This document shows, one piece after another, positions 14,755-31,964 of a DNA stretch of 64,000 nt (the first letter of the stretch is position 1; every line of letters begins with the position of its first letter). The position numbers were made by a program, and so were the translations under genes. The stretch comes from an uncultured virus (IMG/VR IMGVR_UViG_3300027971_000050) (Duplodnaviria; Heunggongvirae; Uroviricota; Caudoviricetes), in IMG/VR virus record IMGVR_UViG_3300027971_000050. One strand, 5' to 3'. Under the pieces are notes generated by a model. It did no database searches. It saw only the letters and a program-made list of their open reading frames with translations, and had not been told where the DNA came from.

Positions 14755-14760
14755 ACTTTT

Positions 14761-14879: not shown

Positions 14880-14887
14880 ATGGATTG

Positions 14888-14905: not shown

Positions 14906-15102
14906 GAGATTTTATAATTTTTTATAAAAATTTATGGGGGTGGTATTAAGTATTACAAAAGTGCTGAGAATGGGTGGGGAATAGTGTTCACACAACTAGC
15001 TACCCGTTAACACATATATGGGTGATGCCCCCATGGTGGGGTCGAAAGTTCTCGGATATTCACGCTTCGAGACAGCTATGCGAACCATCTGCTTACCCCT
15101 CA

Positions 15103-15111
15103 TGGTAAAAT
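15103..15111 (+). promoter_or_regulatory. Extended -10 promoter (TG-G-TAAAAT) for the first early gene
   Basis: TGGTAAAAT followed by a 10-bp 5' hairpin (15120-15142) and the RBS at 15174. Confidence 0.45.
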
Positions 15112-15185
15112 AGCATCAGCGGTTGGGAAAGGTTCTCAGCCGTACAACCCAGAGAGAATTTCTCTCTCACACTAGGAGAAGCAAC

Positions 15186-15644
15186 ATGAACGTGAAAGCA
15201 AACACAACCCTGTCATTCGATGAGTTCGCTAAGTCAGTTGGTAAGTTCGGCAAAGAATTGCAACAGTCAGCTAAGCCATTGGCTGACGCATACGCAAAGG
15301 CTACGCCTGAGCAACAGAAAGACCTTCGTGCTCGTTGGATGCTCAATCACCTTATCGGGCAAGGCTACACCAATGCCAAAGCCATCATCGAGACGGGCAA
15401 AGGCAAAGGCGCTAAGCCTGACCATGTCAAAGCCATTGACAGAGCATCATCTGACTTTACCTACAACATCAAGCAAGGCAAGTCAAAGCCACTGCCTGAG
15501 TCTGATGCTCGCAAGGTTCGCATACCTACTGACCGCAAGGATTACCTGTTCGCTGTGCTTGATGAGTGCTATGACGCTAAGTCACGCAAGCAACAGATTG
15601 ACATGGCTATCGCTGACTTGCGTGCTCTCAAAGCTCGCCTGTAA
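15186..15644 (+). CDS. First early gene; basic protein of unknown function
   Basis: Start MNVKANTT after RBS AGGAGAAGCAAC; flanked by palindrome copies 1 and 2. Confidence 0.8.
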   Translation: MNVKANTTLSFDEFAKSVGKFGKELQQSAKPLADAYAKATPEQQKDLRARWMLNHLIGQGYTNAKAIIETGKGKGAKPDHVKAIDRASSDFTYNIKQGKSKPLPESDARKVRIPTDRKDYLFAVLDECYDAKSRKQQIDMAIADLRALKARL

Positions 15645-15671
15645 CCCAGAGAGAATTTCTCTCTCGAATCT

Positions 15672-15700
15672 GACAGCGCCCTTGTGGCGCTGTTTCTTTT
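15672..15700 (+). terminator. Putative intrinsic terminator
   Basis: ACAGCGCC-cttgt-GGCGCTGT followed by TTCTTTT. Confidence 0.55.
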
Positions 15701-15733
15701 CCTGTCCAACCAAAACCAAACGGAGATTTATCC

Positions 15734-15934
15734 ATGAAATTCGCATTCATTCCAAAAGGCATTTACAAAATCGGGCAAATCATTGAAGTGCATGGTAAGC
15801 CCATGCGTGTTGAAAGCTATAGCCACACTGGCAAAAACGTAACTGTTACCACTTGTGATTGGGCAACAACCCGAGACTTCCCGCAAAAGTTTGAACGCAT
15901 CCTATGTATCTGTACTGATGCACCATCAATCTAA
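15734..15934 (+). CDS. Hypothetical early protein
   Basis: GGAG RBS; 66 aa. Confidence 0.65.
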   Translation: MKFAFIPKGIYKIGQIIEVHGKPMRVESYSHTGKNVTVTTCDWATTRDFPQKFERILCICTDAPSI

Positions 15935-16000
15935 GGAAACTCTGCAAGCTCATGCACTGCGTGGGTTTGCGGGGCAATCCTGCCCGTAAGGAGAATAATC

Positions 16001-16237
16001 ATGCGTAACAACAAGTATCGTGCCTTTTTCACAGTCGCCCAAGTCACAACACCCAAAGGCTTGCTCGTGGTTCAAGACTACTACCCAACCAAAGGCAGTA
16101 GCAAAAGATGGCGTGAATACGTCATCCATCTCGCAGGTATCATCGGCGGTGAAAGCTATGCGTTCACTACACCTGAAGCTCGTAACACATGGGTTCAAGC
16201 TCAAGGCGCACCAGTGCAACAAGCCTTGCCGTTCTGA
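16001..16237 (+). CDS. Hypothetical early protein
   Basis: AGGAGAATAATC-ATG RBS; 78 aa. Confidence 0.7.
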   Translation: MRNNKYRAFFTVAQVTTPKGLLVVQDYYPTKGSSKRWREYVIHLAGIIGGESYAFTTPEARNTWVQAQGAPVQQALPF

Positions 16238-16258
16238 CTCAGAGAGAATTTCTCTCTC

Positions 16259-16634
16259 AGTGGGTAAAATGATGCAAAAAAGTGTTGGAATCTTAGCTTC
16301 CGTGATTTATCCCAGTGTGTTGAATCTGGTACAGCGTTTCAACCAGCAACGGCGGGGATTTTGGCTAGCACTGTCCTATCTATCTATCTTTATAAATATA
16401 TATTTATATATAGAAGGCTTTTATTTTATGTGCGTGTCTTGTCCCCGCCCTTCCCGTCTGTTTTGTTTTGGTTTGTTTGGCTTAGGCTATTGAAGACTTT
16501 ATTTTTGATAGATAGTTGGACATTCACAAACAAAACTCAACAACCATGCGGGCTAGCGACTGTCCCAAATTCTGCACACCCTGTTATAATGCTGGACACT
16601 ATCCACTTTTTTCATTTCGAAAGGACATAATCAC
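16259..16634. other. Non-coding AT-rich region, candidate replication origin; extended -10 TGTTATAAT at 16582-16590
   Basis: AT palindrome TATAAATATATATTTATA, inverted TGTCC..TATCTATC / GATAGATAG..GGACA arms, several TGTCC boxes. Confidence 0.4.
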
Positions 16635-17348
16635 ATGGGTTACAAGTACGAACACCTCATGCGGCTCACATCAAACGAGCTTCACAACCACTGCGAACGG
16701 CTACTAAAGAAGGGCATCAACCCCCTGCTTGTGGCTGACATCAAGAGCACAGTGCTCGAAAACAAAGCGCATCGCAAGTCCATGCGAGCACATGGCAAAC
16801 AGCTACGCAATCAGTGGCGTGTCATTATGTCCCCTTTGATGGCGGAGAAGAAAGCCGTGCGGTCTCTGTTGCTGTACAAAAACTCGCTGTCACATGAGGA
16901 ACGCAAGACAGCACTTGAGGGCTACATGGTTGTGATTGAAAAAGTAGAAGCAAAACTCAGGGAGATTATGACAACATCTCCTGCACCGAAAACACCGCCA
17001 CTGACACCGATGCAATACGACAGCACAAAGAAGCACTGGACTGACTATGTGCCACAGCACATCAAGGACAGGGTGTGTAGTTTGTTTGATGCGATACCGC
17101 ATCACCCACGTCAGAAGGTCAAGCATCCATTCCCTCGCACCATGCCAGAGGAACAACACGCCAAGCTCAAGGCGCGACTCATACAGCGTACTGAGAAAGA
17201 CCTACGCCGAGCCAAGCAGGATGCACTACTCAACCCAGAGAACGAGGAGATACAAGCCCTTGTCAAACGAATTACAGATGCGCTTGTCTTTATCGACAAG
17301 CTCGAACCGAACGAACCTGTGCCGACAACGTGGCACGGACTACTATAA
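16635..17348 (+). CDS. Hypothetical basic helical protein (237 aa)
   Basis: AAGGA RBS and an upstream extended -10. Confidence 0.75.
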   Translation: MGYKYEHLMRLTSNELHNHCERLLKKGINPLLVADIKSTVLENKAHRKSMRAHGKQLRNQWRVIMSPLMAEKKAVRSLLLYKNSLSHEERKTALEGYMVVIEKVEAKLREIMTTSPAPKTPPLTPMQYDSTKKHWTDYVPQHIKDRVCSLFDAIPHHPRQKVKHPFPRTMPEEQHAKLKARLIQRTEKDLRRAKQDALLNPENEEIQALVKRITDALVFIDKLEPNEPVPTTWHGLL

Positions 17349-17449
17349 ACATTTCTTTTTTTCGAGAGAGAAATTCTCTCTCACTGGTCTGCGGAGATTG
17401 GGCTATGCCGCTGACCATCCCGATAGTAGCCTGAACAAAGGAGAGCAAC

Positions 17450-19864
17450 ATGATTTGGAATTACAGAATGGTGAACTGCCCATCAACCAATGGCGGGCAA
17501 GACTGGGTTCAATTAAAGGAGGTGTATTACGAAGGCGAGGTGCTAACGCCTGTGGCGTATTGCGACCCGCCCATGCTTGGCAGTGAGACTGTCAAAGGTT
17601 TAGAAGAGACGATGAAGATGTTGAACAGCGCATTGAATCGCCCCGTGTTACATGAGAACGATTTCAAAGAAGGAGAAACAAAATGAAAGTGCAAGTAATC
17701 CGTATCTATGGATACACAAAGAATCCGTTCGCACCACACGGACACAACCCTGAACCTCTTGATGAGGATGCGCTCATCCTGCCCAAGGGCTTGTCCGACT
17801 CTATGCGTGACGAGGTACTTGCCGAGATGTATGAACGCAAGCAGACGATAGGCTACATCTTCAACGAAGGGGAACGCATCGTTGGCGAGCATCGAGCCAT
17901 GACTGTGGTCTCGTACCGCACCCTTGAAGAGTTTGAGATGGGAGAAGTGCAATGACAAACGAGCAGTACAAATTTCCGTGCGAAGACCTAGCACACGCCA
18001 CATACAAGTGGGGCATTGAGTATTCCAACGATGAGGATGGTGATGAGGTTGTCCATGTCGAGTGGTTCACAACCGAAGAAGAACGCAACCAAGCATTAAA
18101 AGGAGAGGTGCAAACACCCGATTACACATTCAACGATTTATTCAAAGGAGAAGTGAAATGAGAGTAAGTACTGTGATGAAAGAAACGCTTAGCTACTTCG
18201 AAGAGGAGTTGATAGGCGTTGTGGAACGACTGCGCTTTGTCGCTAACAACATGGACGACATACGGGAACGCGACAACTGTTGCAAACAAGTCGAAGTGTG
18301 CATCAGCAAACTGCGTGATTTGATTAGAGAGACTGACTTGAAAGGAGAAGCATCATGAAAGCAAACCAAGTATTGAGCCATATCTTTTTGGCAATCTGTT
18401 CGTACAACCTAGTCGCATTTGGGTTCATTCAAATCGACATATGGGGCACAACGCCGCTGTGGTGTATGTGTGTAGTCATCGGCACGTTCATGCTTGGGTT
18501 CCAAGTGCGTAGCGTGTTGGCTAGAGGAGAGAGCAAATGAAAAGAGAAGAACTAATCAACGAGGTGTTAAACCAAATACTTCAAGACGTAAAGGACTTTG
18601 ACCTGACGGCTATCGAGGAACTCATCAAGGACATACCCGATACAACGCTGATGGCATACCTGCCCGAAGAAAAACAAGGAGAAAGCAAATGAGAGTACAT
18701 GAACTGATAGCGCTATTGAAAACAGTAGACCCCGAGTCCGAGGTGTTTGTGTGGGTAGACGGAGAACGACACCCCGTGACAGATATTGACCCAATCGACT
18801 GGTACGTAGACATCAACGCTGATACGAAAGAGAGGATGGAATGAAGTTAGTACACATACAACAAGCGTTGTTTGCAGCGTATGACATACGCAATGCAATG
18901 ACAACCGATGACATGTACAGACCAACTGAGGGAGAGAGCATAGGTGAGTGCTTAGCTGAAATCATCAACACACTGGAGAACATCGAAGCAGAGATAGAAA
19001 AAGAAGTTAACGAGTACTGCGAAATCTTTGACACCAACCACGGAGAACTTAAATGACCAAACTACCAAACATACATCAACACTTCTTTGCCTCTAGTGCG
19101 TTTGACTGGTGTGCATCGACACCAACACGAGACCTGCGTGAGGTCATCTACATCATGGAGAAGTACAACCACTCTTACAACCTGTACCTAGTACCTGTCT
19201 CGCACGACACACCATACGAGATTAACTTCTATCAACCCCAAGTTGAGGGCACGCAGTGGCTTGGGTTTTTTGAGGTGAACAAGGGAGAAGTGAAATGAAA
19301 CACGCACAAGCAATAAAGGACTACGAACAAGCAATCAAGAACATTAAGTTTCCAACAGTGGAGATAACGATAGGAAGATTCACTGTGCCCTATACATGGC
19401 TACCTTGGATGGGGGCTTTTAACTTAGGCGCTTGGTGTGAAGACGAGCCAGACGGGTTCGATGACGCACCCGAACATAAGCACTTAGAGAAAGTGAGTGA
19501 CGCACTCATAGCGGGGCATAGCGATGAGGAATACATGGATGAGTTGATCGCTGCACTTGCAAGCAACCCATTCACAACAGAGGAGGACTAAATGAAATTT
19601 AGAGATGTACCCGATGCGGCATGGGATGCCGAGCCTACGCCGATACCAACCAAGACAGTGGTGTCGTATGACTGGGATGCACTGCGCTTAGTCCTTGAGA
19701 CTCAAGGCTTTGTTGTCATCGAGTCCGAAGTAACACGCCGCTTGAGCACAGGCGCAGAGGAATCCGTACTGGTCAAAATGTTCAACAGTTACATGAGGAC
19801 TACTAAGAAAACAAAACTGTTCACTCGCAGACTCAGCAAGACACGCTGGCTATGCACAACCTAA
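17450..19864 (+). CDS. Cluster of 11 small, mostly translationally coupled hypothetical ORFs: 17450-17686, 17683-17955, 17952-18161, 18158-18358, 18355-18540, 18537-18692, 18689-18844, 18841-19056, 19053-19298, 19295-19591, 19592-19864
   Basis: ATGA overlaps and purine-rich RBSs, mostly GGAGA(A)-type; 18537 and 18689 (51 aa each) were read by eye. Confidence 0.7.
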
Positions 19865-19971
19865 CAACGCAGGACTAATCATCCTGTCAACAAGTGAGAG
19901 AGAAATTCTCTCTCGCTGTATCGGCGTGTGTCTCACACACAAAACAAAACTAAATCAACTGGAGAAGCATC

Positions 19972-21798
19972 ATGAAAATTTACATGGTTTCAATCAACAA
20001 CGTAGACAATTCACGTTCGGTCAAGTATGTGTATATCAACGCACTCAACCGCTTTGCGGGTATGCGTATCACCAATCATTGTTATGGCAAGCTCGGTGTT
20101 GATCGTGCTCGTGTTAGTTACGATGACTGGGATCCACTGCCCAGACAACTGCGTGAGATAACTGTTAACAACTTACTAGACCTGCACACCATAGCTAACG
20201 AGTACGCACAGCATCTGACAGATTATTTCTCCGAGGGTACGCTTACGTACACGCTTGAGGAAGTGACTGGCGACTTGCGTCATTGGTTCAATACGTGGGG
20301 CTTGCCGTTTACCTTTCGCATATGTAGCTCAATCAGCGATAGTTTGGATACGGTGAGAAAGCGCAACAAGCTCAGGGTTATCGTGCGTGACATGGAAGAC
20401 CGATACAACAAGTTGTGGGGTAGCCGCCCTAACTGGCGTATCAACTACAGGGGTTCAACCTACCACAACGAGTGCGGGTTCAAGTCAGACAAAGTGTTCT
20501 GTGCAGATATGGGCAGGCTCATCGCTGAATCTATCAGGGATGGTGTGGACTCGTTCAGTCAGCCGTTCATGGAGGACTACGACACTGCCTCAAACCTACA
20601 TAACCGCATAGCCCAAGCCGCAAACGATGCGTTTGCTGGCAAGGTTGAGTTCGATCTCACTAATTATTACTGCGATCACTGGGACTTTCATAACAATGGT
20701 AGTGAGGTGCGTATCAGTAGAGGTAGCTATCGTACCTACTGCGATTGTTGTGTTCAGGACAACGATGTTGTCGTTGAGACCTATGACACTGGCATCTTGA
20801 TGGAACGTGAAGCGGCTTACTTTTGCGACAACAACGAGGAGTGGTACGAGCACGAGCCAGATGACCCCGAGTACGATGATGATAATGACAACGATGGGGA
20901 CAGCGAACCCGATGCTAGTTGCCTCATGTCTTACAGCGCCAACGTGCTTGACGTGCTTAGCAAGGACGAGTCGTTCGTAACGTCTCCGTTCGGTGAGTTC
21001 CATATGGGTGTCGAGCTTGAGCTTGTGACCAACGGGTTTGTCAGCGAGGCGGTCGATGATCTGCGTAGCCAGCTTGGTGAGGACTACATCATCTGTAAGT
21101 CGGATGGTTCGTTGCCTTCGGGCGGTGTCGAGATCGTCACTTCGCCTCGTGGTCTAGCCGAGCATATCAAACGCTTCAGTGACTGGAACATTCACAGCAA
21201 CTATCTTGCGTGGAACACAGGCAAGTGCGGTATGCACGTGCACATTGACTCTCGTGCGTTCACTCGGTTGACGCTGGGTAAGTTCATCGTGTTCATCAAT
21301 GACGCTAAGAACGCTGAGTTCATCCGCAAGATCGCAGGTCGTCATCCACACATCGACACTCAAGCTCAGACCTACTGTGCCGCCGAGGGGCAGGAAGTTA
21401 TCAAGAATCCATCCAAGGCACTCAAGGGCAAGAGCGGCAACCGCTACTACATGGTCAACACAACTTGCTTGCGTAGACCAGAGGCTGATCGCTTGGGTGT
21501 GCGGTATGTCGGTGAACGCAACTTCAACACCATCGAGCTTCGTGTGTTTCGTGCAACCCTCAAGCAAGAACGACTGCTTGCACAGATCGAGTTTACTCAT
21601 GCGGTTGTCATGTTCTGCCGTGTCGCCAGTATGCGTGACTTGGATGGCGTGTCGTTCATCAAGTGGCTCAAGACTATCGACAACCGCTACCCGCATCTGT
21701 CTGACTGGTATGGCATACGCCGCCGTGTCGGTGCTAAGAACTCAGCCCCTGCTGAGATCACCTGCGCTGACGTTACGCCTGCCCCTGTCTCTGCTTAA
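19972..21798 (+). CDS. Putative amidoligase (COOH-NH2 ligase superfamily)
   Basis: GVELEL, SDGSL, GVEIVTSP, CGMHVHI and TIELRVFRAT motifs; Cys-rich segment and acidic linker upstream. Confidence 0.85.
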   Translation: MKIYMVSINNVDNSRSVKYVYINALNRFAGMRITNHCYGKLGVDRARVSYDDWDPLPRQLREITVNNLLDLHTIANEYAQHLTDYFSEGTLTYTLEEVTGDLRHWFNTWGLPFTFRICSSISDSLDTVRKRNKLRVIVRDMEDRYNKLWGSRPNWRINYRGSTYHNECGFKSDKVFCADMGRLIAESIRDGVDSFSQPFMEDYDTASNLHNRIAQAANDAFAGKVEFDLTNYYCDHWDFHNNGSEVRISRGSYRTYCDCCVQDNDVVVETYDTGILMEREAAYFCDNNEEWYEHEPDDPEYDDDNDNDGDSEPDASCLMSYSANVLDVLSKDESFVTSPFGEFHMGVELELVTNGFVSEAVDDLRSQLGEDYIICKSDGSLPSGGVEIVTSPRGLAEHIKRFSDWNIHSNYLAWNTGKCGMHVHIDSRAFTRLTLGKFIVFINDAKNAEFIRKIAGRHPHIDTQAQTYCAAEGQEVIKNPSKALKGKSGNRYYMVNTTCLRRPEADRLGVRYVGERNFNTIELRVFRATLKQERLLAQIEFTHAVVMFCRVASMRDLDGVSFIKWLKTIDNRYPHLSDWYGIRRRVGAKNSAPAEITCADVTPAPVSA

Positions 21799-21826
21799 TC
21801 AACAATCAATATAAAGGAATCTCATC

Positions 21827-22948
21827 ATGTGTTTAATCATCACTGGCACTTCTGCCAAAATCCGCTCGACTCTTCTCGACACACACGCACTCATCAGCGA
21901 CATCTACACCAGTAATCCTGACGGCATCGGCATCATGTATGCAACGACCAAGGGCTTGAAGGTTGTCAAGGTATTGCCTAAGTCTCTCGCTGACGCAACG
22001 CAGTTCATTACCAAGTTACCCAACGATGATCGTGAGCTTGCGATTCACTTCCGCTGGACTACGCATGGTCATACCGATATGACTAACTGCCATCCATACG
22101 ATGTAGTCAATGGCTATATTGCAATGATGCACAACGGCGTGTTGCACACTGGCAATGCTGCCGACAAGTCTAAGTCCGACACATGGCATTTCATCCGTGA
22201 CTATCTTGCCAGTCCTGTTGCCGAGCATCCTGCTCTCGTGCACAACGAGAAGTTCCGAGATTTGCTTGCCGAGTTCATCGGTGACAACCGCTTCGTGTTC
22301 ATGGATGGTGACGGCAAGATGAGCCATGTCAACTATGACCAAGGTGTTGAGCACGATGGCTTGTGGTTCAGCAACACGTATGCGTGGAGACCTAGCCGAT
22401 TGATCCCGTCGTATCAGTACTCGACTAAGTATTCCCCACGCTACTACGACAGTATGTATGAGGACTACAAGTATGACAACTCATACGGCGGTTACAAGTC
22501 CCTGCCTTCCAACTCATGGAAGGATGAGGACAGTGCGTATGAGATCAAACCACGCAAGGTGTCAGCGCATGATCTTGAGTGGGATGAGGATGACTACGAG
22601 TTTGCTGATGACAACATTGACGGGTTTGTGATTGACTCTACTGACCTGATTGATATTGTCATGGGTGCAGATGTTGAAGCAGTGTCCGACTTACTAGAGC
22701 AGGCACCAGAGACTACTATAAACATCTTCTGCAATGTGCTGGCGTGTGAGCCAACCCAATGGATTAGGGCTGACAGTATGTCAGTGCTTGAGAACACCAT
22801 CTACCAAGCGTTCCTTGCGGGGGATATGGTTGCATTGCTCGATGCTGTCGATGCGGGGTTGCATGGCAACGTAGCTGACGTTGCTTGCTATTACCTGAAC
22901 TGGTCACACAAGGTGGGCGCTAGACCGATCCTGCCTGCAATGATCTGA
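21827..22948 (+). CDS. Class II (Ntn) glutamine amidotransferase
   Basis: N-terminal M-C, NPDGIG, HFRWTTHG, NCHPY, MHNG and SDT motifs. Confidence 0.9.
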   Translation: MCLIITGTSAKIRSTLLDTHALISDIYTSNPDGIGIMYATTKGLKVVKVLPKSLADATQFITKLPNDDRELAIHFRWTTHGHTDMTNCHPYDVVNGYIAMMHNGVLHTGNAADKSKSDTWHFIRDYLASPVAEHPALVHNEKFRDLLAEFIGDNRFVFMDGDGKMSHVNYDQGVEHDGLWFSNTYAWRPSRLIPSYQYSTKYSPRYYDSMYEDYKYDNSYGGYKSLPSNSWKDEDSAYEIKPRKVSAHDLEWDEDDYEFADDNIDGFVIDSTDLIDIVMGADVEAVSDLLEQAPETTINIFCNVLACEPTQWIRADSMSVLENTIYQAFLAGDMVALLDAVDAGLHGNVADVACYYLNWSHKVGARPILPAMI

Positions 22949-23008
22949 CGGGTGTCATGGCGAGAGAGAATTTCTCTCTCGCATTTTTTAAACTAAAGGA
23001 GAAATGAA

Positions 23009-23290
23009 ATGACTGACAAGACATACAACGGCTGGACTAACTACGCCACATGGCGTGTGAACCTTGAGATATTCGATGGAAATGAGTTGGATGAACTGTT
23101 CGACTTGACTCTGCCCGTTGAACAACTGCGCCATGTGTTGCAGGATTATGTGGAGGGGCACATCTACGAGAGTGGCGGGGGCAATGGCAACATTGCTGTG
23201 GACTATGCGCTAGCATTTTTGTCCGATGTGAATTGGTACGAGATAGCAAAGCACATGATTGAAGATTACAAAGAAGAGATTGAAGAGTAG
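23009..23290 (+). CDS. Conserved phage protein (YNGWTNYATW family)
   Basis: N-terminal YNGWTNYATW and C-terminal VNWYEIA motifs; acidic. Confidence 0.75.
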   Translation: MTDKTYNGWTNYATWRVNLEIFDGNELDELFDLTLPVEQLRHVLQDYVEGHIYESGGGNGNIAVDYALAFLSDVNWYEIAKHMIEDYKEEIEE

Positions 23291-23298
23291 CCACTAAC

Positions 23299-23338
23299 TT
23301 GTCAAACAGTTGACAACCTCGGGAAACCAAGGTACATT
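23299..23338 (+). promoter_or_regulatory. Sigma70 promoter TTGACA-N17-TACATT overlapped by palindrome TTGTCAA-ACAG-TTGACAA
   Basis: -35 at 23310-23315, -10 at 23333-23338, palindrome at 23299-23316. Confidence 0.75.
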
Positions 23339-23359
23339 TTTTATTCAAGGAGGAGCATC

Positions 23360-23887: not shown

Positions 23888-23888
23888 T

Positions 23889-26390
23889 ATGAAAACAATG
23901 ATCCACGTAAACCAGCACGTCATCAAAGCCAACGCAAAGAATGGCACGAACGACCCTGTGCTGACTGTCAAGACGTACAAAGAAAACAGGTACGCACACG
24001 CAGTGGAGATACGAGGCCCAAGCACTGTGCTGTATAGCCCTGACAAACCGCTGTCTTGTGGTGCAAAGGTATGGATTGAAACGTATGCAGAAGTGGAGGT
24101 GATGTGATGTGGGATGTACTTATAACTGTGACCATCATGGGGTTTGGTGCCGTAGCTGTGATTGCCATCTGCGGCTTGATTGGTTGGGCGATATTTTTTA
24201 TTCAGAATGGAGGACGAGATGAGTGAACAATTAAAAATAACGGAGAAGACAAGTGCAGGACTGTGTGATGCGTTGTTTGATGAGTTTGATTTGCTACGCA
24301 ACGGCTTGAGCGATGCGCATAGGGCATCTGCTGTGGCTAAACTGGCAGTGCAGATTATCAACACCAAGAAGCTGGAGATTGAAGCGGCGGCTTTCCACAA
24401 GGCAGGATTACGCTTCGTACCACTTGCACTTAGCGCCAGCGGTATACCCATCGGCAAGAAAGAAGAGCATGCTGAAGCAGGTGTTTGACTTCATGCACCA
24501 GACCGACAGGCCGCACGTACACGGCGAGACTAGAGCAAAGATACTTGCTCTGGTCAAGGAGATTGATGCCGTGTACAAGCAGCACGTACGTGCACCAACA
24601 GGCATGGTGTGTGACATATGTGGCAAGGGCGATACCGACTCCATCCATAAAGTCAAGGATGTTGTCAATGGGTTTGAGCACCGCGAACATATGTCACCAC
24701 GCCTGTGCTACGGCCACGCTTGTGGTTGGAACACGTCGTACACAAAGCTTGAACATCAAAGGAAGTATCAACTACTTGGACTGAACAAACGCGTGTTCAG
24801 TGATGTTATTGAAATGGCAAGAACTGTGTTCGATGAATCTGTGTTGTTAGACGAGGAGATTGATTTGCACTTTGCACAATATCTTGCCAAGCAACTACAA
24901 AAAACATTAAGGGAGAAAGCATGACTGAATTCAACGACACTGAACGAGAGAGCAAGGTTAAACAAGAAAATGTAAAGGCACAAATGAGTAACTTCAACAA
25001 ACCAACAAACCCGCCAGCATTTCCAAATGATGCAATAAAAGATCCTTTCGATAAATCGGGCATGACCTTGCGTGATTACTTTGCGGCAAAGGCTTTGCAA
25101 GGATTGATGAGTCGAGTTTGGGGTGATATGCCAGCAGAAGAACTTTTTAATATTTGGGCAACTTCATCATATGCGTTGGCAGACGCAATGCTGAAAGCGA
25201 GGGAAGCATGAAACAAGATGAAATCATTAAGATGGCTTGGGATTCTGGGGCGTATACACATAGATTAACTATGTGGGGTTTTAGTTTAGAAGACCTTGAA
25301 GCCTTTGCCAAACTGGTAGCCGCCAAAGCAATTGCAGAGTTGGAAAACCAAGAGCCTGTCAAGTATGAGCATAAGACATATACGATGCCAGTTTGCCCTA
25401 AATGCCGTTCATTCTTTTGTGACCATACTTGCAAAGCAATTGTTGATGCAAGATTGAAAGCGAGGAACACATGACGCTTAGAGTTCCTTACGTGATACCG
25501 TTTTTTCGGGCGTTTTTTGATGACACAACCATAGAAGAGGAAGAAGCGCTTGACCGATCAGCGCCGCCCGAGTTTTGGGAGTGCGCTCTCACCAAGAATG
25601 ATTTGCGTACATACCATGAGGGTAAGTTGGCAGATGAATTACCGTGGTTAAAGGAGGAGAAATTATGAAAACCAAACCCATCAACCCCATTACACCACCC
25701 ATCACAGAACTGAACATGGAAGAAGATGGCGTGTTAACAGAAGGAACTGGAAGCGATTACGCATGGTATCAAGCCAAAGTTTTGGCTAATAAAATAAGCT
25801 CATTAAATTTTGCGGTGCAACAAGTAATAACCGCACTAGAGGCCAGACGCAAAGACAATTTACGTGTGATTGAAGAATTGTTGCGCCAGAACGCAGAGTT
25901 AAAAGCCAAACTCAAGGAGAAGAACGATGCTTGAAGCAATCAGAACATTCTTTGGTAAATTACGCAAACGGGGCAATGTGGTAGTCGAGCAAGGGACGCT
26001 TTGGCGATGCACCAAATGTCATTTAATTTTTTTAACCAAACTAACAGGAGAAAAGCATGATTGTCAAAACAGTTACGGAAAATGAAGATGGGACAGCAAC
26101 AATAATTTGCGAGTTCACGCAGGCAGAAATACGTGCGTGTGTTGAAGTTGGGTTTTTAAGGTTGCTTGAAGAGTATTTGAAAAAGAACGCACCATTCCAT
26201 GAAGGAACTATCGATGCCAAGACCGCAGAGTGAGTTAACAGGAGACAGCAAACACATAGGTGCTCGGCTAACTAAATCACATTTTGAAGAATGGAAACGC
26301 TTGGGCGGTGCCAAGTGGTTACGTCAAGAGCTATCAAACAAAATAAAGGAGAGAAGAGATGGACAACCACTTCAACGGAACACGGGCTGA
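23889..26390 (+). CDS. Cluster of small hypothetical ORFs: 23889-24107, 24107-24226 (membrane), 24219-24488, 24469-24924, 24921-25211 (GMTLRDYFAAKA family), 25208-25474, 25471-25668, 25665-25934, 25927-26085 (CxxC), 26057-26233, 26214-26390 (possible RHH)
   Basis: Overlapping start/stop codons and RBSs; several below the ORF-track size cutoff were read by eye. Confidence 0.65.
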
Positions 26391-26622
26391 CGACTTGCAG
26401 ATCAGCGGCAACCATTACAAAGAGATGGCAGTACAGCCGTGGGAACTGATGGAGTCAGTGCTGACGCATGAAGAATTCGTTGGATACCTCAAGGGCAACG
26501 TTATCAAGTACGCACTGCGTGCTGGCCGCAAGGATGGTAGCGATGACTTGGGCAAGTGCAGACACTACATGATGAAACTGGCGGAGGTACAAGATGGCGT
26601 TAACACCGGAAGCGAAAGTTAA
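26359..26622 (+). CDS. DUF3310/SaV-like protein
   Basis: GNHY...QPWE...GYLKGNVIKYALRAGRK...DLGKCRHY motif. Confidence 0.8.
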   Translation: MDNHFNGTRADDLQISGNHYKEMAVQPWELMESVLTHEEFVGYLKGNVIKYALRAGRKDGSDDLGKCRHYMMKLAEVQDGVNTGSES

Positions 26623-26896
26623 AAAGAAGGTCAAGGAGATACTTGACCAGATGGGGGTGTATCACTTCTCACCTATGCAAAACGGCATGGGCAGGGCTGG
26701 CATACCTGACATCATCGGCTGCCTTGAGGGGCAGTTCCTTGGTATTGAATGCAAGGCAGGAAAGGGGACAACAACAGCTTTGCAAGAACGTGAGTTGACC
26801 AGAATACAAAACGCTGGGGGCTACGCCCTTGTCGTGAACGAAGAAAACATTAACCAACTGTGGGAGATTAAAGAATGGCTGACGAACAAACAATAG
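26594..26896 (+). CDS. VRR-NUC domain nuclease
   Basis: TPEAKVK, GIPDII, IECKA, TALQ and GGYALVV motifs. Confidence 0.85.
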   Translation: MALTPEAKVKKKVKEILDQMGVYHFSPMQNGMGRAGIPDIIGCLEGQFLGIECKAGKGTTTALQERELTRIQNAGGYALVVNEENINQLWEIKEWLTNKQ

Positions 26897-27144
26897 AAGC
26901 GCGGCTGGCGCTGATGGACGACGACGAGAAGCAACACTTCAAGATGGTGGTGCTGGCGCTAATCTCATGCTATGGCCCCGATGCAAACAAAGCTGTGCTG
27001 ATGATTAAGATTGGAGAAGAACTGTCAGGACTTACAACGCTGAACTGTGATGAGATGGAGGCCTCAGATATGCTGATGGAAGTCAACAGTTTTTTCGGAT
27101 TCTTAAACACTATGGACGCTCCCCCCAAGGAGGCATTTAATTGA
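26875..27144 (+). CDS. Hypothetical protein
   Basis: 89-aa ORF coupled to the polymerase gene. Confidence 0.65.
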   Translation: MADEQTIEARLALMDDDEKQHFKMVVLALISCYGPDANKAVLMIKIGEELSGLTTLNCDEMEASDMLMEVNSFFGFLNTMDAPPKEAFN

Positions 27145-29108
27145 CTAAACCATTTGACCGCATCATCACCATTGACTTTGAAACTCGGTGGGACAGCAAA
27201 GACTACACACTATCAAAGATGACAACAGAGGAGTACATACGTGATAAAAGATTCATATCTTTCGGTGCTTGTGTCCATGAGTTCGGAAGCACAGAGGACA
27301 CTAGATGGGTTAGAGGAGCAGACCTACCTGAATACTTTTCTGGAGTCGATTGGGGACGAACCGCAGTGCTTGCGCACAACGCACAGTTCGATGTATCCAT
27401 TATGGAGTGGGTATATAACGCCAGACCAGCCTTCATCTTTGACACACTATCAATGGCACGCGCTTTACGCGGCGTGGAAGTTGGTAATTCCCTTGCGAAG
27501 CTGGCGTCCGACTTTGGTCTCCCCGCCAAAGGACAAGCTGTTCACTCCACTAATGGACTGGCTGTTATTACAGAAGATATTGAAGCAGCGCTTGCGGATT
27601 ACTGTGCGCATGATGTATACCTGTGTGAAGAAATCTTCAAGCGCTTCAGTGAAGGCTACCCTACGTCGGAACTACGGCTCATCGACATGACGCTCAAGAT
27701 GTACACACGACCACAGCTTGAGCTTGACCAACAGATGCTTATCAAAGCACTCACAGAAGAAGGAGAACTGCGTGAAGGACTACTACAAAGGCTTGGCATA
27801 CAAGAGAGTGAGCTTGCGTCGAACCCTAAGTTTGCTGACATACTTCAAAGCCTCGGGGTTACTCCCCCGACTAAGGTCAGTAAAACTACCGGCAAAGAAA
27901 CACTTGCACTGGCAAAGAATGATGCCCTTTTCCAAGCGTTACTTAACGGTGAACGTGAGGACGTTGCCCTCCTTTGTGAGGCACGCCTTAAAGTTAAATC
28001 AACAACCGAACGTACGCGTGCTCAAAGGTTCCTTGACATCAGTCAGCGCGGAAAACTACCAGTTCCGCTATCGTATTACGGCGCTCTCTCGGGTCGTTGG
28101 ACAGCGGCAAAGGGCAGCGCAATCAACATGCAAAACCTCAAGCGCGGAAGTTTCTTACGCAAAGCAATTATGGCTCCCGAGGGCTACCAACTTGTCGTCG
28201 GTGATCTCTCACAGATTGAGCCGCGAGTTCTCGCGTGGCTTTCGGATTACCATGAGATGCTTGACATCTTCAGGTCAGGTGGTGACCCTTACGCGGCGTT
28301 CGGAGCGCAGATGTTTAACATACCCGGACTTAGTAAAGAGTCGCATCCCGATCTGCGGCAGTCTGCGAAAAGTGCACTCTTGGGCTGCGGGTATGGACTC
28401 GGGTGGGCATCGTTCGCGGCCCAGCTTCTTGTGGGGTTCCTTGGTGCGCCCCCTGTACGATATGAGAAAACCTTTGCGAAGACGCTCGGGGTCGATCAGG
28501 AGTACGCGCAGCGGTTCATTGACTGGGAGGACAACGTAACCAAGATGCTGGAGATTCCCCACACCTGCACCGACCAAGAGCTACTGACGCACTGCCTTGC
28601 CGCCAAGAAGATCATTGACATCTACCGCGCCACTGCCCACCCCGTTGCTACCTTCTGGGACATGTGCTCACAGCTTATCGAGGACAGTTTGTTTGGGGGT
28701 AGGGTATACCAGCATAAGTGTTTGACATTCAGCAAAGAGCGTATAGAATTGCCAAACGGGATGAGCTTGCTCTACCCCAATCTCAGACGCACGAAAGATG
28801 ACAAAGGTAGGAGCCAGTGGGTATACGGGCCAAATGCTACCAAGCTGTATGCAGGGAAGGTTACCAATAACGTTACGCAGGCCGTAGCGCGTATTGTCAT
28901 GACCGATGGAATGTTGAGGGTGACGAAGAAGTACCCCGTGGTTGGCACAGTACACGATGAACAGATTGTGTTGGTGCCTGATGAGGAAGTCGCTGACGCT
29001 AAGACTTGGGTCTTGGAGCAGATGACGTTGGAGCCGAAGTACATGCCGGGGATACCTCTGGCCGCTGACGGTGGTGCACACCGTAGATATGGAGAAGCAA
29101 AACAATGA
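27141..29108 (+). CDS. DNA polymerase, family A, with 3'-5' exonuclease (TTG start)
   Basis: IDFET, AHNAQFD and YCAHD exonuclease motifs; motif A GDLSQIEPR, motif B RQSAKSALLGCGYG, motif C VHDE. Confidence 0.95.
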   Translation: MTKPFDRIITIDFETRWDSKDYTLSKMTTEEYIRDKRFISFGACVHEFGSTEDTRWVRGADLPEYFSGVDWGRTAVLAHNAQFDVSIMEWVYNARPAFIFDTLSMARALRGVEVGNSLAKLASDFGLPAKGQAVHSTNGLAVITEDIEAALADYCAHDVYLCEEIFKRFSEGYPTSELRLIDMTLKMYTRPQLELDQQMLIKALTEEGELREGLLQRLGIQESELASNPKFADILQSLGVTPPTKVSKTTGKETLALAKNDALFQALLNGEREDVALLCEARLKVKSTTERTRAQRFLDISQRGKLPVPLSYYGALSGRWTAAKGSAINMQNLKRGSFLRKAIMAPEGYQLVVGDLSQIEPRVLAWLSDYHEMLDIFRSGGDPYAAFGAQMFNIPGLSKESHPDLRQSAKSALLGCGYGLGWASFAAQLLVGFLGAPPVRYEKTFAKTLGVDQEYAQRFIDWEDNVTKMLEIPHTCTDQELLTHCLAAKKIIDIYRATAHPVATFWDMCSQLIEDSLFGGRVYQHKCLTFSKERIELPNGMSLLYPNLRRTKDDKGRSQWVYGPNATKLYAGKVTNNVTQAVARIVMTDGMLRVTKKYPVVGTVHDEQIVLVPDEEVADAKTWVLEQMTLEPKYMPGIPLAADGGAHRRYGEAKQ

Positions 29109-29416
29109 CAGAGTTAACACTGCCAAAGAAAATAAGAATTGGGGAGAAGTGGTACTCAGTCGAGGTTGTCGAGGCTATGCAAGACAAACTTGACATGGGG
29201 CGTGTGATGTATCTTGAACAGAAGATCAAATTGGGCTTACGCAACGGCACGACTGGGCGCAAGTTCAACCTTGATGATGTACGAGAAACATTCTGGCACG
29301 AACTGGTACACGCTATCCTACGGGACATGGAAGAACACAAGCTCAACAAGCGTGAGGAGTTTGTTGAAGGGTTTGCCAAACGATTAAACATTGCAATCAA
29401 CTCAGCGAGGTTTTAA
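29105..29416 (+). CDS. Small HExxH (metallopeptidase-like) protein
   Basis: ETFWHELVHAIL...EEFVE. Confidence 0.6.
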   Translation: MTELTLPKKIRIGEKWYSVEVVEAMQDKLDMGRVMYLEQKIKLGLRNGTTGRKFNLDDVRETFWHELVHAILRDMEEHKLNKREEFVEGFAKRLNIAINSARF

Positions 29417-30081
29417 TGAAACAAGTAACGTGGAGCCACAGTGCCCTGAAAGATTTTGAAGGATGCCCCCGCCGGTATCACGAAGTCAAAGTTCTTAACA
29501 ACTATGCTTTTCAGGAAACTGAGGCTACATATTACGGAAAAGAGTTTCACATTGCCGCTGAAGTTTATATACGGGATGGCGTACCGCTACCACCACAATT
29601 TTCTTACGCACAAGAAGTTCTGGATGCGTTGCTGGCCAAGCCGGGCAGGAAGCTGTGCGAGTACGAGATGGGTATCACGCCTGACCTCCAGCCGTGTAGT
29701 TTCAACGACAAGGGCAGATGGGTACGAGGCATCGCTGACTTACTAATAATCGATGATGAGAACCTGACCGCCACTGTCGTGGACTACAAAACAGGCAACA
29801 ACCGCTACCCAGATATTGACCAGCTAAAGCTGATGTCGATGATGGTGTTCAAACACTTCCCGCACATACGCCGAGTCAAGTCAGCATTGCTGTTCGTGGT
29901 CAAGAATGATATGGTTAAGCACAGCATGGCGCTCGACAATGCCGATGCTGAGTGGTGGAAGTATCGTGAGCGTGTAGCTAAATTAGAGCAGTGCCATAAC
30001 ACAGGTGTGTGGAACCCAAAGTCCTCCGCGTTGTGCCCGTGGTGTCCAGTTAAATCGTGTGAATACAACCCGAAACATTAG
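29416..30081 (+). CDS. PD-(D/E)XK Cas4/RecB-like exonuclease
   Basis: WSHS...CPRRY, GIADL, VVDYKTG, C-terminal CPWCPVKSC. Confidence 0.85.
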   Translation: MKQVTWSHSALKDFEGCPRRYHEVKVLNNYAFQETEATYYGKEFHIAAEVYIRDGVPLPPQFSYAQEVLDALLAKPGRKLCEYEMGITPDLQPCSFNDKGRWVRGIADLLIIDDENLTATVVDYKTGNNRYPDIDQLKLMSMMVFKHFPHIRRVKSALLFVVKNDMVKHSMALDNADAEWWKYRERVAKLEQCHNTGVWNPKSSALCPWCPVKSCEYNPKH

Positions 30082-30090
30082 GAGTGGGTC

Positions 30091-30321
30091 ATGGCAAGAA
30101 ACTATGCAAAAGAGTACGAGAACTATCAAGGCAAGCCTGAGCAAATCAAGAAGACAGGCGAGCGCGTCAAAGCAAGGCGCATGATGGTCAAGGCAGGCAA
30201 GGCAACAAAGGGGGACGGCAAAGACGTGGATCACGTCAAGCCCATCCGTAGCGGAGGGACAACTACTATAAACAATCTTCGCATGCGCAGTCGCAGTTCA
30301 AACCGAAGCGACAACAAATAA
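30091..30321 (+). CDS. Small HNH protein
   Basis: KDVDHVKPIRSGG...NLR...SSNRS. Confidence 0.8.
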   Translation: MARNYAKEYENYQGKPEQIKKTGERVKARRMMVKAGKATKGDGKDVDHVKPIRSGGTTTINNLRMRSRSSNRSDNK

Positions 30322-30336
30322 AACAACGGAGAAGCA

Positions 30337-31896
30337 ATGGAAATCCTTGAAGACAAGGCACTAGTATTCAGAACCAGAAACCCAGATAAGTACAGCATCA
30401 TCCCAAAGCACAAAGTCATGGAACGCGATGACGGTGGGTTTGATGTTGCTGTCTACTGGGGACTCGATGAATGTAGGGTGCTACGCAACCTCGGGGTGAA
30501 GGACGTTCCCTCACCTATCACACGCAAATACAAATGGCCGGGCAGGTATAAGCCCATGCAACATCAGATTGAGACGGCAGCGTTTCTGACGATGCACCGC
30601 AAAGCGTTTGTGTTCTCCGAACCCGGCACTGGCAAGACACTTGCCGCGCTGTGGGCGGCTGACTACTTGATGCAGATCAAGCATGTACGCAGAGTTTTAA
30701 TTCTGTGCCCACTATCCATCATGCAATCTGCATGGTTGGCTGACCTGAGTAACAGCATCATCCATCGCTCTGCCATCGTTGCGCACCACACCCAAGCTAG
30801 TCGGCGTATAGAGATGATTCAACAAGACTACGAGTTCGTTATCGCTAACTACGAAGGACTGAACTTGATAGCCGATGAGATCAACGCTGATGGTCGCTTT
30901 GATCTGGTGATTGTGGATGAGGCCAACGCATACAAGACAGTGACGACTAAACGTTGGAAGTCATTGAAGGCGATCATCAAACCCAACACACACGTATGGA
31001 TGATGACTGGTACTCCAGCATCGCAGTCACCAGCAGATGCGTATGGCTTGGCCAAGATCGTGAACCCCGAAGGCGTACCAAACTTCTACACATCATGGCG
31101 CGACAAAGTGATGAACAAAATCACGCTGTACAAATGGGCACCAAAACATAACGCCGCCGAGTTGGTACACGAGGCACTGCAACCCGCAATCAGATTTACC
31201 AAAGCGCAATGCCTTGACTTGCCACCAGTGCTGACCACAACACGCGAAGTACCACTGACACCACAGCAAGCCAAGTACTACAACCTACTGAAAGATCGCA
31301 TGCTGGTGCAAGCCGCAGGCGAGACGATCAGCGCAGTCAATGCTGCCGCTGGTGTATCCAAGTTGTTGCAAATCAGTTGCGGCGCTGTCTACACAGATGA
31401 CAAGGAGGTTATTGAGTTCGATGCCGCCCCACGCTTGGGTGTGCTGGAAGAGATACTGGATGAGACAGACCGCAAGGTCATCATCTTTGCGTTGTTCCGT
31501 TCAAGCATCGACAGCATCCAGACACATCTGACAAAGAAGAACATTCCCAACGAGTGCATACACGGTGGAGTCACACCAAACAAACGTGCCGACATCATCC
31601 ACAGATTTCAGCACGACAAAGAACCAAGGGTGTTGGTAATGCAGCCACAAGCTACGGCACACGGGATTACCCTGACTGCCGCTGACACCGTGGTATTTTT
31701 TGGGCCATTGATGAGCGTGGAGCAGTACATCCAGTGCATTGCACGGGCTGACCGCAAGGGACAGAACTCAGACAAAGTTACTGTTATCCACATCCAAGGC
31801 TCACCGATTGAAAAGAAAATGTTCAAAGCATTGGAGGCTAAGGTAAGTGATAACTCACTTCTTACCCAGATGTTTGAGATAGAAATAAATTCTTGA
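30337..31896 (+). CDS. SNF2-family helicase
   Basis: PGTGKT, VDEA, MTGTP, HGITL and QCIARADRKGQ motifs. Confidence 0.92.
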   Translation: MEILEDKALVFRTRNPDKYSIIPKHKVMERDDGGFDVAVYWGLDECRVLRNLGVKDVPSPITRKYKWPGRYKPMQHQIETAAFLTMHRKAFVFSEPGTGKTLAALWAADYLMQIKHVRRVLILCPLSIMQSAWLADLSNSIIHRSAIVAHHTQASRRIEMIQQDYEFVIANYEGLNLIADEINADGRFDLVIVDEANAYKTVTTKRWKSLKAIIKPNTHVWMMTGTPASQSPADAYGLAKIVNPEGVPNFYTSWRDKVMNKITLYKWAPKHNAAELVHEALQPAIRFTKAQCLDLPPVLTTTREVPLTPQQAKYYNLLKDRMLVQAAGETISAVNAAAGVSKLLQISCGAVYTDDKEVIEFDAAPRLGVLEEILDETDRKVIIFALFRSSIDSIQTHLTKKNIPNECIHGGVTPNKRADIIHRFQHDKEPRVLVMQPQATAHGITLTAADTVVFFGPLMSVEQYIQCIARADRKGQNSDKVTVIHIQGSPIEKKMFKALEAKVSDNSLLTQMFEIEINS

Positions 31897-31902
31897 AAGG
31901 AG

Positions 31903-31945
31903 TTGCAAACTTAAATTTATTGTGTACACTGTCCAACCTTAGACA
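31903..31945 (+). promoter_or_regulatory. Promoter TTGCAA-N16-TACACT with TGTCCA-ACCT-TAGACA operator-like site over the start
   Basis: -35 at 31903-31908, -10 at 31925-31930, imperfect palindrome at 31930-31945. Confidence 0.55.
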
Positions 31946-31964
31946 AACAAAACAGGAGAAGTAA

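Follow-up and report, generated by a model that had tools for sequence, protein, structure and literature searches.

The Burkholderia double-hairpin small RNAs (sRNAs) and the Neisseria NmsRs carry unpaired CU-rich stretches whose sequence is complementary to that of the ribosome sites in their target mRNAs (excerpted text of PMC5688073). Here we describe a candidate sRNA encoded by an uncultured virus of the Caudoviricetes, IMG/VR record IMGVR_UViG_3300027971_000050, of which a stretch of 64,000 nucleotides (nt), hereafter the window, was analyzed. The sRNA gene lies next to the early operon of this phage, and the invariant 10-nt core of the RNA, hereafter the seed, is complementary to the Shine-Dalgarno sequence and adjacent spacer of many early genes, a subset of which carry the extended motif GGAGAAG(C/T)A (hereafter, the tag). 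In the consensus fold of 35 related RNAs, the unpaired CU-rich stretch, the small hairpin and the terminator that RF02278 (Burkholderia ncS03/05/27/62) and NmsRa/b have in common, as far as the excerpted description goes, are all found. The RF02278 consensus, which begins with UGUCUCCUCC, aligns over the seed, the second hairpin and the terminator of the window's sRNA, with scores far below the family cut-off of 50 bits (16.5 bits for positions 14820-14880 of the window, and 26.4, 26.0 and 22.2 bits for the related loci L047, L037 and L053, respectively). No Rfam family reached its gathering score for the sRNA or for the window, and the best sub-threshold matches were all to CU-rich anti-Shine-Dalgarno sRNAs, namely, RF02278, NmsRb and mmgR. 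Unlike the multi-copy RNAs of bacterial chromosomes (Burkholderia type), the window's sRNA is phage-encoded, occurs in a single copy and has an additional 5' helix. Its best targets appear to be the phage's own early genes with a matching extension.

A different parallel is provided by the RegB/S1 system of phage T4, in which a 3' extension of GGAG (target GGAGAAUAAAA) marks early mRNAs to be inactivated after transcription, whereas many late mRNAs lack it (excerpted text of PMC1702504). The distribution here is the same, with GGAGAAG preceding 10/42 early and 0/37 late starts in the window, and 60/503 and 0/134, respectively, in its relatives. The reader in T4 is a protein nuclease together with S1, whereas the reader proposed here is an RNA; no RegB family was detected among the 47 proteins scanned against Pfam (including all 42 plus-strand proteins and all but 32 of the minus-strand ones). 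Furthermore, the 7-nt A-rich run, almost free of C, that characterizes RegB sites in the excerpted account (PMC1702504) is not found here, where the tag includes C or U as the fourth base of the spacer. The c4 antisense RNA of P1 and P7 (immI) is also a phage sRNA that blocks translation by pairing around the ribosome site of a phage mRNA; according to the excerpted part of PMC12197685, it acts on one operon (icd-ant) in the immunity of a temperate phage, whereas in the present case a single seed matches dozens of early genes that are unrelated to one another, in a phage that appears to be lytic. The Rfam C4 model gave no match at gathering score in the window and was not among the sub-threshold hits. 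Pairing across the Shine-Dalgarno sequence that blocks the 30S subunit is the established action of the CU-rich sRNAs and c4 (excerpts of PMC5688073 and PMC12197685) and, thus, a precedent for the mechanism proposed below. The excerpted part of a 2025 review of phage sRNAs presents single-target cases only (PMC12197685). In the searchable full-text literature, which leaves out most subscription journals, we found no report of a phage sRNA by which several early genes of the same phage are repressed via their Shine-Dalgarno regions.

The temporal control of gene expression in lytic phages is usually attributed to promoters, sigma factors and antiterminators, and to a small number of mRNA-acting proteins (T4 RegA and RegB). 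The observations reported here make a sequence-level case for another device, a short code in the ribosome sites of early genes that would be read by an sRNA of the same phage. This code can be seen in the genome sequence; it separates the predicted targets (small early genes and the genes for an amidoligase-like protein, an SNF2 helicase and a Gam-like protein) from the spared replication enzymes and the late genes, and has moved together with the RNA in three lineages. If the proposal holds, the system would be an RNA counterpart of T4 RegB/RegA. It could be tested directly even though the host is uncultured, and would allow annotators to predict early regulons of metagenomic phages.

A conserved candidate sRNA gene next to the early operon

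The reverse complement of AGGAGAAGCAAC, the ribosome site of the first early gene, is located at 14817-14828, within the gap between the divergent minus-strand and plus-strand gene blocks. The following elements were identified in this gap:

14726-14754, plus strand: promoter-like element read from the sequence, TTGTAC (14726-14731), 17-nt spacer, TATACT (14749-14754)
14760-14879, plus strand: candidate sRNA of about 120 nt, with the 5' end placed by the -10 box and the 3' end by the U-run of the terminator
14818-14827, plus strand: invariant core (seed) TGCTTCTCCT, the complement of AGGAGAAGCA; UGCUUCUCCU in RNA
14828-14845, plus strand: second hairpin, CGGTTG, loop TTGGTT, CGACCG
14850-14879, plus strand: terminator hairpin with a GC-rich stem, followed by T7 (single-sequence fold)

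The order of elements is, accordingly, promoter-like box, long 5' helix, small second hairpin and GC-rich terminator hairpin, and the sRNA occurs once in the window. To trace it beyond this phage, 81 related loci were gathered from viral contigs by searches with the first early protein, the amidoligase and a 16-nt string. The sRNA is present in 61 of these, that is, in every locus that reaches the spot; the remaining 20 end before the sRNA site, with two beginning inside the terminator and one in the leader, and no relative that reaches the site was found to have lost the sRNA. The 35 distinct versions of the sRNA are only 38% identical on average across alignment columns, yet all 10 columns of the core are invariant. 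The consensus fold of these 35 RNAs consists of the 5' helix, hairpin 2 and the terminator, with 7 of the 14 pairs maintained through changes on both sides; CUUCUCCU is unpaired between the helices, and the first UUG of the core is placed at the base of the 5' helix. Among the relatives, hairpin 2 is rebuilt by compensatory pairs (CAGTTG..CAACTG, GATGG..CCATC, GAGG..CCTC), and the terminator stem co-varies as well and is always followed by 6-9 T. All three clades of relatives retain the promoter layout TTGnnn-N17-TA(T/C)ACT; in the window, the element scores below the threshold of a consensus promoter scan. The sRNA reported in the initial annotation thus looks real, as judged by the promoter-like TTGTAC-N17-TATACT element, two co-varying helices, the terminator and the 61 loci. 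Its own putative promoter, conserved single-stranded seed, variable body and terminator with a U tail are the features expected of a trans-acting sRNA of the Hfq type. No member of the Hfq or ProQ families was detected among the 47 proteins scanned against Pfam. Exact matches to the 18-nt seed string across 185,579 species genomes numbered 24, approximately as many as expected by chance (hand estimate), and none had the sRNA architecture or gave a clue to the host.

Several further features of the sRNA locus are conserved or variable among the relatives. The 5' helix of the window's sRNA contains an insertion of about 30 nt with the hairpin GGCCTTTGGCC (14775-14804, plus strand), which is present in some and absent from other otherwise near-identical sRNAs and occupies other positions in L005, L034 and L053; it looks like a small mobile palindrome. 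An inverted repeat, GCGCAT...ATGCGC (14713-14742), is strictly conserved in the window's clade and overlaps the -35 box of the sRNA and also the untranslated leader belonging to a minus-strand gene that starts at 14710 and has no recognizable Shine-Dalgarno sequence. Between the terminator and gene 1, the leader (14890-15150, plus strand) is conserved as well. It has the G-rich blocks GGGTGGGGAATAGTGTTCA and TATATGGGTGATG..GGTGGGGTC and, at 15103-15111, TGGTAAAAT (TATAAT in L007), which is likely an extended -10 box; the leader is probably the early promoter region.

Complementarity of the seed to early ribosome sites

The window covers the greater part of a genome that belongs to an uncultured tailed phage from freshwater. 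Its open reading frame (ORF) layout and family searches delineate three strand blocks:

1-14710, minus strand: structural and packaging block, including the portal and the large terminase
15186-36817, plus strand: early/middle block with many small genes without a known family, an amidoligase-like protein and replication enzymes
36940-64000, minus strand: second late block with virion and lysis genes, including a gene for a 3258-amino-acid LPD38 protein

Start codons were curated by hand from the ORF tables (first ATG), which gave 42 plus-strand starts (15186-36817) and 37 minus-strand starts. An automatic start-picker based on Shine-Dalgarno strength was discarded because it picked internal starts in long genes; a motif-blind automatic caller, which recovered 30 of the 42 curated plus-strand starts, was used for all relatives. 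GGAG precedes 31/42 plus-strand but only 8/37 minus-strand starts (Fisher p=4.5e-6), and the difference persists as the motif is extended to GGAGA (24/42 vs 3/37), GGAGAA (19/42 vs 2/37), GGAGAAG (10/42 vs 0/37, p=0.0013) and GGAGAAG(C/T) (9/42 vs 0/37). AAGGA, by comparison, is equally common on both strands (15/42 and 14/37). The position of GGAGAAG(C/T) is specific as well: the plus strand of the plus block has 12 copies, 9 of them at ribosome sites, and the antisense strand has one; the late coding strand, about 42 kb in total, has a single copy, which lies outside ribosome sites. The base 3' of GGAGAAG is C or T in 9/10 sites of the window (binomial p=3e-4) and in 47/55 distinct sites of the relatives (34 gene families), where C accounts for 30/55 and G for none. 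With the motif-blind caller, the relatives show the same early-versus-late enrichment as the window, both for GGAG (374/503 early vs 26/134 late starts) and for GGAGAAG (60/503 vs 0/134). The spacers between the Shine-Dalgarno sequence and the start are mostly 6-7 nt long (262/367), and in the window's clade, A has a frequency of 0.87 and 0.73 at spacer positions 1 and 2, and C of 0.38 at position 4.

The initial annotation had listed 15 tag-like strings upstream of early genes and quoted several different ribosome sites of late genes. All 15 strings were recovered where listed, in each case followed after 3-8 nt by the initial ATG of an ORF, and the late sites AAGGAGTAAC, AAGGAGTCTT, AAGGATAAA, AAGGAATA, AAGGAAAAA and AAGGAGTTG are all present; the list had omitted AGGAGAGAGCAA at 18525 (gene 18537). 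The accompanying claim that GGAGAAG(C/T)A marks plus-strand genes applies to a subset of these genes, about a third, and fails as a label of every plus-strand gene.

The core was defined from the conservation of the sRNA alone. Its duplexes with the 25-nt start regions of plus-strand genes have a mean energy of -10.0 kcal/mol, with 15/42 at -12 or better, compared to -5.8 kcal/mol and 0/37 for minus-strand genes (p=2e-5 for 15/42 vs 0/37). Among the 1024 seeds of the form N5+CUCCU, the core ranks 1 on the early sites of the window (2 with the start codon excluded) and 415 on the late sites. When the early genes of the relatives were grouped into 144 families, the core ranked 2, 1 and 2 at the gene-family level in the three clades (56, 38 and 85 families, respectively). 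Shuffling of the spacers weakens the hybridization both in the window (-11.48 observed vs -9.42 +/- 0.30; 0/2000 shuffles as good, z about -7) and in the relatives (-10.27 vs -8.94 +/- 0.13; 0/500 as good, z about -10). The C/T and A/G deviations among the sites, which the initial annotation had described as retaining G-U pairs, are indeed those that preserve G-C, G-U or A-U pairs with the seed; in particular, C and U after GGAGAAG both pair with a seed G. The core of the sRNA is the optimal complement of the early sites (rank 1-2).

Duplex prediction with the full-length sRNA, ignoring intramolecular structure, was discarded, as it yielded spurious long duplexes (270/300 random windows 'used' the core); co-folding was therefore employed instead. 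A seed-to-site helix of at least 7 base pairs (bp) is present in the minimum-energy structure for 18/42 plus-strand and 3/37 minus-strand genes (p=7e-4). Taken at face value, these models single out about 15-18 of the 42 plus-strand genes as strong targets, the first at 15186 and the last at 31965. Among the genes predicted to be spared are those for the polymerase (27141), primase (33929) and exonuclease (29416), the starts of which lack the tag, as well as the genes at 32377 and 21827 and all late genes.

Co-variation of seed flanks and site flanks

The sRNAs fall into three groups by the base that follows the core, ...CUCCU-CGG (the window's), ...CUCCU-GAUGG and ...CUCCU-UGA(U/G)G, and the early ribosome sites differ accordingly between the clades. 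In the clade with flank CUCCUUGA (UGA), TCAAGGAG occurs in 62/330 distinct early sites (18/85 families) and TCAGGAG in one, whereas in the clade with flank CUCCUGAU (GAU), TCAGGAG occurs in 6/47 sites (4/38 families) and TCAAGGAG in three (Fisher p=3.6e-6 for sites and 0.0055 for families; optimistic values, as discussed below). This one-base difference in the site flank is repeated in the orthologs of gene 1, the amidoligase gene and the 21827 gene. In the window's clade, the flank CUCCUCGG (CGG) is part of hairpin 2 and does not match AAGGAG; the pairing is shifted 5' on the seed, and GGAGAAG(C/T)A is found in 17/91 sites, compared to 18/330 and 3/47 in the other two clades. None of the three motifs, TCAAGGAG, TCAGGAG or GGAGAAG(C/T)A, occurs in the 128 late sites of the relatives. 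The clade-by-seed interaction in duplex energy (trace -0.915 kcal/mol) was reached by 4/5000 label permutations. On the gene set of its own clade, each 3' flank ranks high among 64 possibilities (CGG 8, GAT 11, TGA 3); on the sets of the other clades, CGG ranks 27-33 and GAT 18-50, whereas TGA ranks 3 there too, with no difference.

We consider this co-variation the strongest evidence, at the level of sequence comparison, for a link between the sRNA and the sites. Its robust part consists of the family-level counts and of the one-base change that recurs in three unrelated genes.

Outgroup phages

Two outgroup phages help to delimit which part of the tag is specific to the RNA. In the freshwater phage DSL-LC04 (L086), pattern searches and terminator scans revealed no comparable sRNA. 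GGAGAAG shows no contrast there (2/42 non-structural vs 1/40 structural genes), and the fit of the seed is weaker than in the window, with a mean of -7.99 vs -9.78 and 5 vs 14 strong sites. In the Methylophilales phage MEP401, which resembles the window in its two-block layout and encodes a distant amidoligase, there is no early/late contrast (GGAG 11/28 vs 12/39, zero GGAGAAG), and the seed ranks 223. Taken together, GGAGAAG is found at 10/42 sites in the window vs 2/70 in the two outgroups (p=9e-4).

The shorter motifs behave differently in DSL-LC04: GGAGA precedes 18/42 non-structural vs 4/40 structural genes and GGAGAA 13/42 vs 2/40, in a phage in which no sRNA was found, so that the short GGAGA(A) part is not RNA-specific. 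GGAG followed by AA seems to be a more widespread habit among early genes, and an early/late difference in the type of Shine-Dalgarno sequence may be common in phages like DSL-LC04. Only the extension, G(C/U)A, together with the 5' flanks that differ by clade, appears to form the RNA-specific layer. The same bias in phages that lack the sRNA, which according to the initial annotation would refute the reading of the tag as an sRNA target, is thus observed for GGAGA(A) in DSL-LC04 but not for GGAGAAG.

Proposed mechanism and alternative explanations

We propose that the host RNA polymerase transcribes the sRNA of about 120 nt (14760-14879, plus strand), with transcription stopping at the intrinsic terminator. 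Between two helices, it would expose a pyrimidine-rich stretch with the core UGCUUCUCCU, which resembles an anti-Shine-Dalgarno sequence but is longer. The predicted target genes carry the mirror image, AGGAGAAG(C/U)A, as the Shine-Dalgarno sequence plus spacer, and are mostly small genes without a known function, along with the amidoligase-like, SNF2 helicase and Gam-like genes. Pairing over 9-12 bp would cover the Shine-Dalgarno sequence, exclude 30S subunits and lower or end translation, and the late genes, with AAGGA-type sites lacking GGAG, as well as the polymerase, primase and exonuclease genes, would escape. By comparative analysis, the conservation of the sRNA gene, the reality of the complementarity and the joint evolution of the two sides can be regarded as shown; transcription of the sRNA, repression by pairing and the timing of its action are what we infer from them. 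That the sRNA pairs with early ribosome sites and represses their translation appears to us to be the probable interpretation. The broader proposition, that a large family of freshwater phages runs an RNA-based translational program in which a fixed 10-nt seed plus a lineage-specific flank addresses a co-evolving early regulon, seems evenly balanced between true and false. The initial annotation had suggested that the spacer acts as an address for coordinated repression. Complementarity, rank, shuffling and co-variation argue for an address, one that would be confined to the extended part of the motif and to about a third of the early genes; the repression would follow from the proposed pairing.

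Several observations weigh against this interpretation. Transcription of the sRNA is deduced from the sequence, and the three public runs of RNA type consist of contigs only and leave 14768-14834 uncovered, providing no evidence either way. In both the consensus and the single-sequence folds, the UUG at the start of the core is paired at the foot of the 5' helix, so that the G(C/U)A part of the site could be reached only if the end of that helix opened. The GGAGA/GGAGAA bias of early genes in DSL-LC04 is accompanied by a seed rank of 17/1024 on the non-structural sites of that phage. The Fisher and permutation tests assume an independence that holds only in part for related phages and genes, making the p-values optimistic. 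With the 10-nt core alone, orthologs from other clades often pair weakly and target status is poorly conserved; it is conserved across clades only when the flank of each clade's own sRNA is counted. The putative host-type promoter of the sRNA adjoins the early promoters, so that the RNA would be present together with its targets. Finally, the site counts cover phage genes only.

The early sites could be generic strong ribosome sites, in which GGAG and an A-rich spacer compete for ribosomes, while the sRNA does another job, such as silencing host mRNAs; any pyrimidine stretch resembling an anti-Shine-Dalgarno sequence would then fit phage sites. We regard this explanation as unlikely, although it accounts well for the DSL-LC04 results, and T4 early genes, too, have GGAG followed by an A-rich run (excerpted text of PMC1702504). 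Moreover, at least 7 of the 24 bacterial matches to the seed 18-mer are reverse complements of gene starts consisting of AAGGAGAAGCA and ATG, which indicates that the string serves as an ordinary ribosome site in several phyla. What generic sites leave unexplained is the excess of GGAGAAG over the outgroups, the prevalence of C or U and complete avoidance of G after it, the rank of 1-2 out of 1024 for the exact core in four gene sets and, above all, the swap between TCAAGGAG and TCAGGAG that accompanies a one-base change in the seed flank, because positions 5' of AAGGAG are not fixed by pairing with the 16S tail. An RNA directed at the host would also be selected against complementarity to the phage's own genes. 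This co-variation with the sRNA flanks is not predicted either if the tag is read by a phage RNA-binding protein or nuclease, as by RegB with S1 in T4, and the match to the sRNA is secondary. Such a protein address has an obvious model in the RegB/S1 site, an 11-nt element of GGAG and an A-rich part found on early mRNAs, mostly at Shine-Dalgarno sequences (excerpted text of PMC1702504), and an unrecognized RNA-binding protein is conceivable given that most of the small early proteins have no known family. Nevertheless, neither RegB nor any other fitting RNA-binding or nuclease family was detected among the 47 proteins scanned against Pfam or the 18 scanned against PHROGs, and C, almost excluded from RegB sites in the excerpted account (PMC1702504), has a frequency of 0.38 at the fourth spacer position here; we give this possibility very little credence.

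The location of the element directly upstream of the early operon, co-directional with it and ended by a terminator, would also suit an attenuator or antitermination leader (promoter, boxA-like single strand, hairpin and terminator) that acts only in cis, perhaps pairing with the site of the first gene upon read-through, in which case the other sites would not be targets. The best match (12/12) is, indeed, that of the first gene, 350 nt downstream, and a single strand followed by a hairpin presumably resembles phage nut sites. However, the conserved promoter-like TGGTAAAAT (15103-15111) lies between the terminator and gene 1, so that early transcripts need not begin at the sRNA promoter. The first genes of several relatives have no seed match (GAAAGGAACACACC in L015, L016, L021, L024 and L028, and AAAGGAAATAAATC in L018), and the core is nonetheless invariant there. 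Because the rank, shuffling and co-variation results rest on dozens of downstream gene families, a purely cis-acting element strikes us as very improbable. Still less plausible is the notion that the 10-12-nt strings are homology patches for the exchange of early cassettes, kept by descent and shuffling. The early region is certainly mosaic, with near-identical RNA and leader joined to different first genes and with the 144 early families unevenly distributed across the clades. Recombination linkers, however, would not be expected at a fixed distance from the start and including the Shine-Dalgarno sequence, with deviations biased toward pair-preserving bases, nor would they follow the seed flank of an RNA gene.

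Predicted target sites

The candidate sites in the window are listed with the energies, in kcal/mol, of the duplex between the 10-nt core and the start region and, where given, of the co-fold of the full sRNA with the start region.

15174-15185, plus strand: AGGAGAAGCAAC, gene 15186-15644, the first early gene, no known family; 12/12 complementary to 14817-14828; duplex -16.7, net co-fold gain -16.5
17439-17449, plus strand: AGGAGAGCAAC, gene 17450-17686; duplex -12.1, seed helix forms in the co-fold
17941-17951, plus strand: GGAGAAGTGCA, gene 17952-18161; duplex -13.7, co-fold positive
18146-18157, plus strand: AGGAGAAGTGAA, gene 18158-18358; duplex -13.8, co-fold positive
18343-18354, plus strand: AGGAGAAGCATC, gene 18355-18540; duplex -16.6, co-fold gain -11.0
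18525-18536, plus strand: AGGAGAGAGCAA, gene 18537-18692; duplex -13.1, co-fold gain -12.1
18677-18688, plus strand: AGGAGAAAGCAA, gene 18689-18844; duplex -13.0, co-fold positive
19283-19294, plus strand: GGGAGAAGTGAA, gene 19295-19591; duplex -13.8, co-fold positive
19961-19971, plus strand: GGAGAAGCATC, gene 19972-21798, amidoligase-like (PF12224); duplex -15.9
23348-23359, plus strand: AGGAGGAGCATC, gene 23360-23887; duplex -16.1 including one G-U pair, co-fold gain -11.4
24911-24920, plus strand: GGGAGAAAGC, gene 24921-25211; duplex -12.8 including the start codon, seed helix absent from the co-fold minimum
25915-25926, plus strand: AGGAGAAGAACG, gene 25927-26085; duplex -12.3, co-fold positive
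26047-26056, plus strand: GGAGAAAAGC, gene 26057-26233; weaker match, duplex -11.9
29091-29104, plus strand: GGAGAAGCAAAACA, gene 29105-29416; duplex -16.1, co-fold gain -12.8
30328-30336, plus strand: GGAGAAGCA, directly before gene 30337-31896, SNF2-type helicase; duplex -16.3, seed helix absent from the co-fold minimum
31954-31964, plus strand: AGGAGAAGTAA, gene 31965-32369, Mu Gam-like; duplex -14.8, co-fold positive

For the amidoligase gene, the orthologs reach -12 kcal/mol or better with the seed of their own clade at 3/3 (clade C), 14/14 (clade T) and 1/2 (clade G) distinct sites.

An exact copy of GGAGAAGCA also occurs within gene 23360-23887 (23428-23440, plus strand), one base before an in-frame GTG at 23438, which may be an internal start yielding a shorter product. 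The DNA polymerase ORF at 27141 (plus strand) has an apparent TTG start behind AAGGAGGCATTTAA; no ribosome site precedes its first ATG, which lies 78 nt downstream.

Genome context and additional features

The products of the plus-strand block that could be named are the amidoligase-like protein, a family A DNA polymerase, a PD-(D/E)XK nuclease, the SNF2 helicase, the Gam-like protein and a DUF927 primase/helicase. Family searches of the window detected no phage RNA polymerase among its proteins, so that the host enzyme presumably transcribes the phage. The 3258-amino-acid ORF (36940-46716, minus strand) was considered as a possible N4-type virion RNA polymerase and dropped from consideration, as it has no polymerase match. 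It contains an LPD38 'large polyvalent protein' domain at its C-terminal end, and is probably an injected DNA-transfer protein. ARAGORN predicted zero transfer RNA genes.

The phage is only distantly related to those in culture, the large terminase being about 53% identical to that of the nearest cultured phages. Megablast of positions 15000-32000 against 50,697 phage records gave no match, and a sensitive blastn search with 14690-15190 produced one 38-nt match judged to be due to chance; the region is absent from the nearest record, G001 (34.7 kb). The 20 public runs listed as holding part of 14500-16500 are, in their majority, labeled as freshwater or lake-water metagenomes.

Loci L015-L028, which share a near-identical RNA and leader with the window, encode first early genes that are unrelated to the gene at 15186 and have different ribosome sites; judging from this comparison, the point of mosaic exchange is immediately 3' of the leader. 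Six near-perfect palindromes of 19-21 nt, (C/G)AGAGAGAA(A/T)TTCTCTCT(C/G), are located at 15156, 15653, 16246, 17370, 19902 and 22968 (plus strand), all between early genes. The relatives have the same palindrome or a differently spelled hairpin at like places (GGGGAGGTTTCTCCCC in L007, GGGGAGACTTTCTCCCC in L039 and L057), and this element could be a hairpin for RNA processing or stabilization, or an operator.

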